DNA of 64,000 nucleotides from Eledone cirrhosa (Eukaryota): contig OZ024748.1 of NCBI GenBank assembly GCA_964016885.1, forward strand, positions 31,310,001 through 31,374,000, given 5' to 3'. This document shows, piece by piece, positions 34,467 to 50,455 of this stretch. Made by a program: the position numbers and the translations under genes. The number at the start of each line of letters is the position of its first letter. Position 1 is the stretch's first letter. Below the pieces are notes generated by a model, which was not told the origin of the DNA, searched no databases, and saw only the letters and a program-made list of their open reading frames with translations.

Positions 34467-37400
34467 GAATGAAACGCGTAGATTACTTCCCTTGCTTTTA
34501 TCGAGAATCTAATTGTAATACGTGACGTATTCTATTCTATAGCGATTAGGTCTTCAAAATGTTTATTATAAACATACAGAATATTTTCGAATATTCTATG
34601 TCTATATTCACATATATATCGCTATTTCAGAGCATTTATTCCAATTTCTAATTTCTGCCGGACCGGCAACCGCTCTTTCAAACCAGTTCCTGTACACAGC
34701 TAAGTATTCTATAAGTCTCTAGCTGTGTCATTCTCGATAAAAGCACTGGATATGTAGTCCTGAAGATTTCTAACAAGAATGAAACGCGTAGATTACTTCC
34801 CTTGCTTTTATCGAGAATCTAATTGTAATACGTGACGTATTCTATTCTATAGCGATTAGGTCTTCAAAATGTTTATTATAAACATACAGAATATTTTCGA
34901 ATATTCTATGTCTATATTCACATATATATCGCTATTTCAGAGCATTTATTCCAATTTCTAATTTCTGCCGGACCGGCAACCGCTCTTTCAAACCAGTTCC
35001 TGTACACAGCTAAGTATTCTATAAGTCTCTAGCTGTGTCATTCTCGATAAAAGCACTGGATATGTAGTCCTGAAGATTTCTAACAAGAATGAAACGCGTA
35101 GATTACTTCCCTTGCTTTTATCGAGAATCTAATTGTAATACGTGACGTATTCTATTCTATAGCGATTAGGTCTTCAAAATGTTTATTATAAACATACAGA
35201 ATATTTTCGAATATTCTATGTCTATATTCACATATATATCGCTATTTCAGAGCATTTATTCCAATTTCTAATTTCTGCCGGACCGGCAACCGCTCTTTCA
35301 AACCAGTTCCTGTACACAGCTAAGTATTCTATAAGTCTCTAGCTGTGTCATTCTCGATAAAAGCACTGGATATGTAGTCCTGAAGATTTCTAACAAGAAT
35401 GAAACGCGTAGATTACTTCCCTTGCTTTTATCGAGAATCTAATTGTAATACGTGACGTATTCTATTCTATAGCGATTAGGTCTTCAAAATGTTTATTATA
35501 AACATACAGAATATTTTCGAATATTCTATGTCTATATTCACATATATATCGCTATTTCAGAGCATTTATTCCAATTTCTAATTTCTGCCGGACCGGCAAC
35601 CGCTCTTTCAAACCAGTTCCTGTACACAGCTAAGTATTCTATAAGTCTCTAGCTGTGTCATTCTCGATAAAAGCACTGGATATGTAGTCCTGAAGATTTC
35701 TAACAAGAATGAAACGCGTAGATTACTTCCCTTGCTTTTATCGAGAATCTAATTGTAATACGTGACGTATTCTATTCTATAGCGATTAGGTCTTCAAAAT
35801 GTTTATTATAAACATACAGAATATTTTCGAATATTCTATGTCTATATTCACATATATATCGCTATTTCAGAGCATTTATTCCAATTTCTAATTTCTGCCG
35901 GACCGGCAACCGCTCTTTCAAACCAGTTCCTGTACACAGCTAAGTATTCTATAAGTCTCTAGCTGTGTCATTCTCGATAAAAGCACTGGATATGTAGTCC
36001 TGAAGATTTCTAACAAGAATGAAACGCGTAGATTACTTCCCTTGCTTTTATCGAGAATCTAATTGTAATACGTGACGTATTCTATTCTATAGCGATTAGG
36101 TCTTCAAAATGTTTATTATAAACATACAGAATATTTTCGAATATTCTATGTCTATATTCACATATATATCGCTATTTCAGAGCATTTATTCCAATTTCTA
36201 ATTTCTGCCGGACCGGCAACCGCTCTTTCAAACCAGTTCCTGTACACAGCTAAGTATTCTATAAGTCTCTAGCTGTGTCATTCTCGATAAAAGCACTGGA
36301 TATGTAGTCCTGAAGATTTCTAACAAGAATGAAACGCGTAGATTACTTCCCTTGCTTTTATCGAGAATCTAATTGTAATACGTGACGTATTCTATTCTAT
36401 AGCGATTAGGTCTTCAAAATGTTTATTATAAACATACAGAATATTTTCGAATATTCTATGTCTATATTCACATATATATCGCTATTTCAGAGCATTTATT
36501 CCAATTTCTAATTTCTGCCGGACCGGCAACCGCTCTTTCAAACCAGTTCCTGTACACAGCTAAGTATTCTATAAGTCTCTAGCTGTGTCATTCTCGATAA
36601 AAGCACTGGATATGTAGTCCTGAAGATTTCTAACAAGAATGAAACGCGTAGATTACTTCCCTTGCTTTTATCGAGAATCTAATTGTAATACGTGACGTAT
36701 TCTATTCTATAGCGATTAGGTCTTCAAAATGTTTATTATAAACATACAGAATATTTTCGAATATTCTATGTCTATATTCACATATATATCGCTATTTCAG
36801 AGCATTTATTCCAATTTCTAATTTCTGCCGGACCGGCAACCGCTCTTTCAAACCAGTTCCTGTACACAGCTAAGTATTCTATAAGTCTCTAGCTGTGTCA
36901 TTCTCGATAAAAGCACTGGATATGTAGTCCTGAAGATTTCTAACAAGAATGAAACGCGTAGATTACTTCCCTTGCTTTTATCGAGAATCTAATTGTAATA
37001 CGTGACGTATTCTATTCTATAGCGATTAGGTCTTCAAAATGTTTATTATAAACATACAGAATATTTTCGAATATTCTATGTCTATATTCACATATATATC
37101 GCTATTTCAGAGCATTTATTCCAATTTCTAATTTCTGCCGGACCGGCAACCGCTCTTTCAAACCAGTTCCTGTACACAGCTAAGTATTCTATAAGTCTCT
37201 AGCTGTGTCATTCTCGATAAAAGCACTGGATATGTAGTCCTGAAGATTTCTAACAAGAATGAAACGCGTAGATTACTTCCCTTGCTTTTATCGAGAATCT
37301 AATTGTAATACGTGACGTATTCTATTCTATAGCGATTAGGTCTTCAAAATGTTTATTATAAACATACAGAATATTTTCGAATATTCTATGTCTATATTCA

Positions 37401-49400: not shown

Positions 49401-50455
49401 CGTGACGTATTCTATTCTATAGCGATTAGGTCTTCAAAATGTTTATTATAAACATACAGAATATTTTCGAATATTCTATGTCTATATTCACATATATATC
49501 GCTATTTCAGAGCATTTATTCCAATTTCTAATTTCTGCCGGACCGGCAACCGCTCTTTCAAACCAGTTCCTGTACACAGCTAAGTATTCTATAAGTCTCT
49601 AGCTGTGTCATTCTCGATAAAAGCACTGGATATGTAGTCCTGAAGATTTCTAACAAGAATGAAACGCGTAGATTACTTCCCTTGCTTTTATCGAGAATCT
49701 AATTGTAATACGTGACGTATTCTATTCTATAGCGATTAGGTCTTCAAAATGTTTATTATAAACATACAGAATATTTTCGAATATTCTATGTCTATATTCA
49801 CATATATATCGCTATTTCAGAGCATTTATTCCAATTTCTAATTTCTGCCGGACCGGCAACCGCTCTTTCAAACCAGTTCCTGTACACAGCTAAGTATTCT
49901 ATAAGTCTCTAGCTGTGTCATTCTCGATAAAAGCACTGGATATGTAGTCCTGAAGATTTCTAACAAGAATGAAACGCGTAGATTACTTCCCTTGCTTTTA
50001 TCGAGAATCTAATTGTAATACGTGACGTATTCTATTCTATAGCGATTAGGTCTTCAAAATGTTTATTATAAACATACAGAATATTTTCGAATATTCTATG
50101 TCTATATTCACATATATATCGCTATTTCAGAGCATTTATTCCAATTTCTAATTTCTGCCGGACCGGCAACCGCTCTTTCAAACCAGTTCCTGTACACAGC
50201 TAAGTATTCTATAAGTCTCTAGCTGTGTCATTCTCGATAAAAGCACTGGATATGTAGTCCTGAAGATTTCTAACAAGAATGAAACGCGTAGATTACTTCC
50301 CTTGCTTTTATCGAGAATCTAATTGTAATACGTGACGTATTCTATTCTATAGCGATTAGGTCTTCAAAATGTTTATTATAAACATACAGAATATTTTCGA
50401 ATATTCTATGTCTATATTCACATATATATCGCTATTTCAGAGCATTTATTCCAAT
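34467..50455 (+). repeat. 310-bp tandem array, ~51.6 monomers, each with a hammerhead ribozyme (retrozyme-like satellite)
   Basis: GAAACGCGTA recurs every 310 bp from 34471 to 50281; only one variant base noticed (40480). Confidence 0.97.
34754..34796 (+). ncRNA. Minimal type I hammerhead ribozyme (first of 51 complete copies; last at 50254-50296)
   Basis: GTAGTC-CTGAAGA-tTTCT aaca AGAAt-GAA-ACGCGT-A-GATTAC: stem I, core, stem II, palindromic stem III; predicted cleavage after GUA (34790). Confidence 0.9.

Follow-up and report, generated by a model that had tools for sequence, protein, structure and literature searches.

The window analysed here is a 64,000-nt stretch of Eledone cirrhosa DNA (GenBank assembly GCA_964016885.1, contig OZ024748.1, forward strand, positions 31,310,001 to 31,374,000), and coordinates are given within it. 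It contains a long array of 310-bp units, for which a first-pass annotation had claimed 51 tandem copies each carrying a hammerhead ribozyme. We confirmed this organization by three routes: TRF returned a period of 310 and 51.6 copies at 34463-50455, exact mapping placed 51.6 head-to-tail units on the plus strand at 34467-50455, and a motif count within the mapped interval gave 51 complete type I hammerhead motifs, the first at 34754 and the last at 50254, with all 50 spacings equal to 310. When monomers are taken from one predicted cut to the next, 50 of 51 are identical, and the odd one carries an A to C change at 40480. The array is free of Ns (the sole gap in the window is at 60452-60651). 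The monomer has a GC content of 34% and a longest stop-to-stop frame of 59 aa in the four units scanned; an ORF with reverse transcriptase (RT) and GIY-YIG is absent from the unit, and the array itself is not a Penelope-like element. Features of the locus are collected in Table 1.

Table 1. Features of the 310-bp array, its flanks and the neighboring insertions (window coordinates).
Feature	Position	Strand	Remarks
Left (TA/TACA)n target tract	33893..34466	.	
Single-arm retrozyme insertion	34467..50455	+	5'-truncated at monomer position 297; 3' end at position 165 (site B)
First complete hammerhead motif	34754..34796	+	repeated every 310 bp, 51 times
Stem I, 5' strand	34754-59	+	
Core	34760-66	+	
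Stem II	34767-80	+	U-U base
GAAA	34781-84	+	
Palindrome	34784-89	+	
Stem I, 3' strand	34791-96	+	
Shared module, ~monomer 60-235	34850..35025	+	~76-82% to two sister families; contains sites A and B
Right (TA/TACA)n target tract	50456..50844	.	
Second, independent insertion, inverted arm	50845..51855	-	3.3 units; outer end at site A
Second insertion, direct arm	51855..52520	+	2.1 units; outer end at site B; haplotype as in the inverted arm
Sister 319-bp retrozyme fragment	59210..59399	+	76% identity to monomer 69-235

Elsewhere in the window, positions 1-32000 hold rearranged mitochondrial-like DNA within the nuclear contig, including what we take to be pieces of cox3, nad5, cox2 and a nad4-like gene; ATP6 in this region is 97% identical to that of Eledone cirrhosa, in line with the octopus host suggested earlier, and a tRNA (24834-24911) and an AT-rich unit of ~5.2 kb in tandem are also present. 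Just 5' of the left TA tract lies a GC-richer stretch (33672-33890), which gave no tool match and which we presume to resemble the head of a tRNA-derived SINE.

The ribozyme anatomy read earlier from the sequence, namely stem I GUAGUC/GAUUAC, CUGAAGA, a stem II, GAAA, ACGCGU and GUA, is present as described, and cleavage is predicted behind the GUA, after position 34790+310n. All 51 motifs fit the core CUGANGA...GAAA...UH. Stem II is UUCU/AGAA, and the pair position at its base is U-U, not the G-C pair that closes the base of helix II in the usual hammerhead; one subfamily carries A-U there. The U-U base may weaken ribozyme activity. Rfam gave no hammerhead match, either at the gathering score in the whole window or at E ≤ 10 in 34600-35300, so we identify the motif by its anatomy and by comparison with published hammerheads. 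Helix III consists of a single pair topped by the palindrome, and the predicted folds fit the helix I and helix II sizes of dimer-type hammerheads, described as having a helix I of ~6 bp, a helix II of ~4 bp and a short palindromic helix III, which becomes longer in the dimer (PMC4209133). The predicted minimum free energy fold of two successive motifs is already a double hammerhead (–86.1 kcal/mol with and without constraint), and the cut-to-cut monomer is predicted to be self-paired, with stem I closing both ends (z –5.2, 0/100 shuffles). These models support the proposed retrozyme-type design with a dimer-type hammerhead.

An ordinary satellite that spread at the DNA level and resembles a hammerhead by chance would agree with the missing Rfam match and with the fold of the isolated 61-nt motif, which is no better than that of shuffles. 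We nevertheless regard this explanation as very improbable: none of 5000 dinucleotide-shuffled monomers contained the motif when both strands were searched (it is likewise absent from the minus strand of the actual monomer), related families have kept the hammerhead, and the fixed 3' ends, strict pairing of two end sites and TA targets described below have no DNA-level explanation.

The label "satellite" did not hold, as the array represents a single insertion from a family that is dispersed and retroposed. An exact motif pattern matched 14,057 times in the whole genome (0 for a reversed-pattern control), which by multiplication corresponds to ~14,000 units, ~4.4 Mb or ~0.15% of the assembly. 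A genome similarity search gave at least 251 matches, drawn from 39 of 169 candidates and in many cases at 100%, and many 100%-identical units were found over six contigs. We sampled 38 loci from the similarity search and 14 chosen for likeness to two haplotypes, and added 20 loci taken among the 100 matches that come first in position order; 13 of these 20 belong to the 310-bp family. We conclude that the repeat is a young dispersed family inserted within (TA)n tracts.

The insertions have a fixed geometry. In 53 regions, all 93 readable 3' ends fall in two windows amounting to 30 of the 310 monomer positions, with site A at monomer 127-139 and site B at 164-172, while the 5' ends are scattered (9 of 97 inside these windows). 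TA-rich DNA lies beyond 89 of the 93 readable 3' ends. We called 40 head-to-head insertions, and each of the 38 readable at both ends has one A and one B end (L036 and L045, with unreadable ends, were left out); the A-B offset ranges from 26 to 44 nt and is most commonly 35 nt (19/38). Two insertions entered as single arms in the 53-region count, L044 and L049, are also head-to-head (ends 139/165 and 130/165). The 13 position-ordered loci comprise 10 head-to-head insertions, all with A/B ends, two single-armed insertions and one cut by a gap. Among 40 inner junctions, 24 overlap by 1-8 nt, seven are blunt and nine carry extra bases. Non-LTR retrozymes, where they have a target duplication, have one longer than 4 bp. 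Informative duplications of at least 8 bp were found at 20 of 49 loci, compared to 87 of 400 mismatched controls; within TA tracts, most target duplications cannot be read. No target duplication could be assigned to the 51-mer array, and no terminal-repeat structure was seen in the sampled loci.

The insertion next to the 51-mer shows the head-to-head form. Its inverted arm differs from the 51-mer haplotype at three positions (CUGAUGA core), and the whole (50845-52520) is possibly flanked by an 11-bp target duplication. Further short inverted-arm elements in (TA)n tracts lie at 52520-53370, 54070-54630, 55590-56540 and 60900-61210, apparently with the same insertion geometry.

This geometry is that of Penelope-like elements, which are reported to have a "tail" on one end, an inverted 5'-truncated copy and a preference for (TA)n (10.1101/2021.04.23.441226); the retrozyme insertions likewise combine a tail on one end, an inverted 5'-truncated copy and an AT-rich target. 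A purified Penelope-like protein from Anolis nicks both strands of AT-rich DNA, and two internal RT starts bound the tail (PMC11167929). As in Poseidon of Anolis and in Naiad/Neptune, where the two starts are ~30-40 nt apart, AT-rich or (TA)n targets are used and a hammerhead lies upstream of the start sites. Unlike Penelope-like elements, the retrozyme has no ORF, a unit of 310 bp rather than several kb, and up to 51 units per arm. In addition, the start site was not strand-specific for the Anolis enzyme in vitro, whereas two-armed retrozyme insertions use both sites, one per strand. We conclude that the ends of the retrozyme insertions match those of Penelope-like insertions, and from this match we infer the enzyme.

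Penelope-like elements are abundant in the genome (10,596 GIY-YIG candidates, with open frames carrying RT and GIY-YIG present) and are candidate drivers of the retrozyme. Two of them lie in the window. A broken copy at 56714-59195 (minus strand) belongs to a family of 7,234 candidates whose longest frames reach ~1,290 aa; on C6, copies of this family stand in tandem at a spacing of ~4.26 kb. The family has its own hammerhead-like motif upstream of the frame. A terminal repeat of another family at 59428-59879 (plus strand; 97% to L092, L096 and L103) has a hammerhead motif at 59724 with an AGUACU palindrome and abuts the sister-retrozyme fragment.

The family has two sister retrozyme families (1,054 and 2,111 candidates; L173, L175, L184 and L195, and L070 and L144, respectively) with the same head-to-head ends. 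One has a 319-bp unit, a U3-A8 core pair, a covariation described in PMC4209133, and a longer palindrome; the other has a longer helix III. That both keep the module with the end sites beside a different hammerhead suggests selection on both parts, and judged from sequence the module may be the recognition region for a borrowed reverse transcriptase. Blastn, tblastn and a two-sequence nhmmer profile, applied to the sampled sister-family loci and to Penelope-like loci amounting to a small part of the 10,596 candidates, found no autonomous element with the module. A separate hammerhead repeat (L094, L098 and L104) has a helix II nearly equal to that of the 310-bp family and lacks the module.

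We favor, with a probability of roughly 0.6, the reading that the 51-mer is one insertion into (TA)n, in which a borrowed Penelope-like enzyme travelled around a 310-nt circular RNA predicted to be released by the hammerhead. In this scheme, arrays would be transcribed, successive hammerheads would pair their ACGCGU palindromes and cut after GUA, and the 310-nt monomer would be ligated to a circle. A Penelope-like RT-GIY-YIG protein would nick both strands of a TA-rich target, and reverse transcription would start at the two fixed internal sites at which the ends are observed, one per strand. The cDNA would circle the template a variable number of times, giving arms of <1 to ~50 units with scattered 5' ends. 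Two cDNAs would then join by 0-8 nt of microhomology and copy each other into the head-to-head insertions whose junctions we see; the 1-8 nt junction overlaps fit such annealing and copying, which has an analogy in L1 twin priming. A minority of insertions, the 51-mer included, have a single arm only.

Eleven head-to-head insertions combine a non-reference haplotype with at least one full unit per arm, and in every one of them the two arms agree in haplotype. Likewise, each of the 10 two-strand clusters in the position-ordered list has a single one of the three motif variants. The cut site shows no excess of 5' ends (2 of 118 lie no more than 5 nt from it, compared to 4.2 expected), and seven 5' ends at monomer position 250 are partly an artefact of the monomer's internal inverted repeat. 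Because arms share a haplotype and no pile-up is seen, we favor a monomeric circular template. Some templates may nonetheless have been multimeric, repeatedly slipped or later duplicated, because in seven insertions minority variants recur, either in non-adjacent units (L037, L050, L051, L054 and L205-206) or in both arms (L052 and L214). These repeats are not strictly periodic, and we rejected the periodicity of a multimeric circle. A test of the circular template with private haplotypes failed, both haplotypes occurring at several loci (232 and 34 copies); haplotypes at several loci, together with long homogeneous arrays, mean that such arrays could serve as linear templates.

It follows that Penelope-driven insertion from a long uncut or oligomeric transcript of a homogeneous array, with a hammerhead weak or dispensable for mobility, has to be weighed. 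Minority variants common to both arms or to distant units and long homogeneous arrays known for several haplotypes fit this explanation, which would equally give no 5' pile-up, and the Anolis element used mainly uncut RNA, its ribozyme cleavage being dispensable for insertion in vitro (PMC11167929). We consider it unlikely on three grounds. A new haplotype occupies every unit in the two arms of its insertion, and this requires passage through a single unit; a ~76%-identical sister family keeps the hammerhead fold with a different palindrome and the U3-A8 core pair; and family-wide variants avoid the invariant core, the free N7 position being seen as A, U and C. Private substitutions hit the catalytic core 2 times in 49, compared to 1.9 expected, with no depletion.

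We retain the circular monomer as the preferred template. The fullest version of this reading, in which the 16-kb array is one rolling-circle event of up to 50 rounds on a self-cleaved, ligated 310-nt circle, with both nicked strands primed at the two fixed sites by a pair of Penelope-like enzymes, we put forward tentatively, at somewhat below even odds. If it is true, each insertion would be a clonal record of one circular RNA, and the genome would prove that an animal retrotransposes circular RNA, with the two Penelope start sites strictly one per strand.

The suggestion that the array is exceptionally long was not borne out. Coral retrozyme arrays reach 62-mers (PMC7229834), arrays of 180 units in axolotl and 300 units in the insect Ophonus ardosiacus have been published (10.64898/2026.07.22.740005), and the same genome has arms of 40.3 and ~34 units in other haplotypes, the latter in a sub-lineage of 232 copies with helix II loop UACG (L219; G000:C2:186672851-186684633). 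Thus, a length of 51 units is ordinary for non-LTR retrozymes. The 51-mer carries one variant in 51 units, compared to 66 in 365 units elsewhere (Poisson P 0.001), and insertions differ in age; these data fit a single recent event, with the unit number as assembled.

Alternatively, a short insertion could have reached 51 units by later DNA-level expansion (unequal crossover or slippage), or the count could be partly an assembly over-estimate. The copy number is that of the assembly; the 51-mer is single-armed and unusually uniform, L037, L050 and L054 hint at duplication in blocks of 3-6 units, and local unequal crossover is the process favored in 10.64898/2026.07.22.740005. Against expansion, the arms of 40 and ~34 units belong to two other haplotypes and lie within head-to-head insertions, arm lengths form a continuous tail, no variant has been amplified inside the 51-mer, and the young insertions L211 and L213 are nearly as clean. 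We judge this origin of the array quite improbable.

Words sampled from window 34791-35410 were present, at half or more, in 20 of the 24 public runs listed (18 coded organisms, 17 studies), with a near-identical unit. Run X1 yielded 605 contigs with a summed depth of ~200,000 and loose TA ends near sites A and B. Runs X3 and X15 yielded one contig each (340 and 331 nt, depth 11.9 and 9.6), with variants that also occur in G000, and X21 yielded no reads; a single low-depth contig of unit length, as in X3 and X15, fits carry-over from a genome rich in the repeat. On these four of the 24 runs, spread of the repeat between species is unsupported, and the pattern suggests that the unit could reveal carry-over between samples with high sensitivity. 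The list contained no RNA run, which says nothing for or against expression.

The class to which the family belongs is already published. The family shows the following sequence features of non-LTR retrozymes: a tandem unit within 150-450 bp, a GC content below 50% and a type I hammerhead in each unit, as in metazoan non-LTR retrozymes, and, as in those of coral, mussel and axolotl, a non-coding, self-paired monomer, arrays of tens of units and co-present Penelope-like elements, alongside whose autonomous copies the family is dispersed over many loci. The closest known hammerheads are those of axolotl and of newt satellite 2. Helix III of the octopus motif resembles that of HHR_Amex1 of axolotl (a single pair and a palindromic tetraloop) and the U-U mismatch at the base of its helix II that of HHR_Amex2, both of which cleave far better as dimers, HHR_Amex2 being active (PMC7229834); the octopus motif unites both weak features. 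In Xenopus, one of nine retrozyme dimers cleaved (10.64898/2026.07.22.740005). Expression and cleavage have been shown for retrozymes in PMC7229834 and 10.64898/2026.07.22.740005; for the octopus family both are predictions.

Both papers propose Penelope-like mobilization. The former proposes rolling-circle copying by a probably Penelope-like enzyme; the latter proposes local DNA amplification and calls the mechanism of mobility unresolved. A term search of the two main texts found no mention of tails, head-to-head arms, two fixed end sites or (TA)n targeting, and no cephalopod host appears in them. The literature searched, mainly open papers and their main texts, contained neither a cephalopod retrozyme family nor a junction analysis of this kind. 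The value of the finding lies in the junctions, not in the length of the array. Both main papers leave open how animal retrozymes move, and the octopus junctions make the question directly testable: for an in vitro test, the RNA, both start sites and the target DNA can now be specified. Given the youth of the family, intact junctions are available in the thousands, and they favor priming of the Penelope type and a bottleneck of one unit. The 310-bp retrozyme family is also a sizeable recent share of the Eledone genome.
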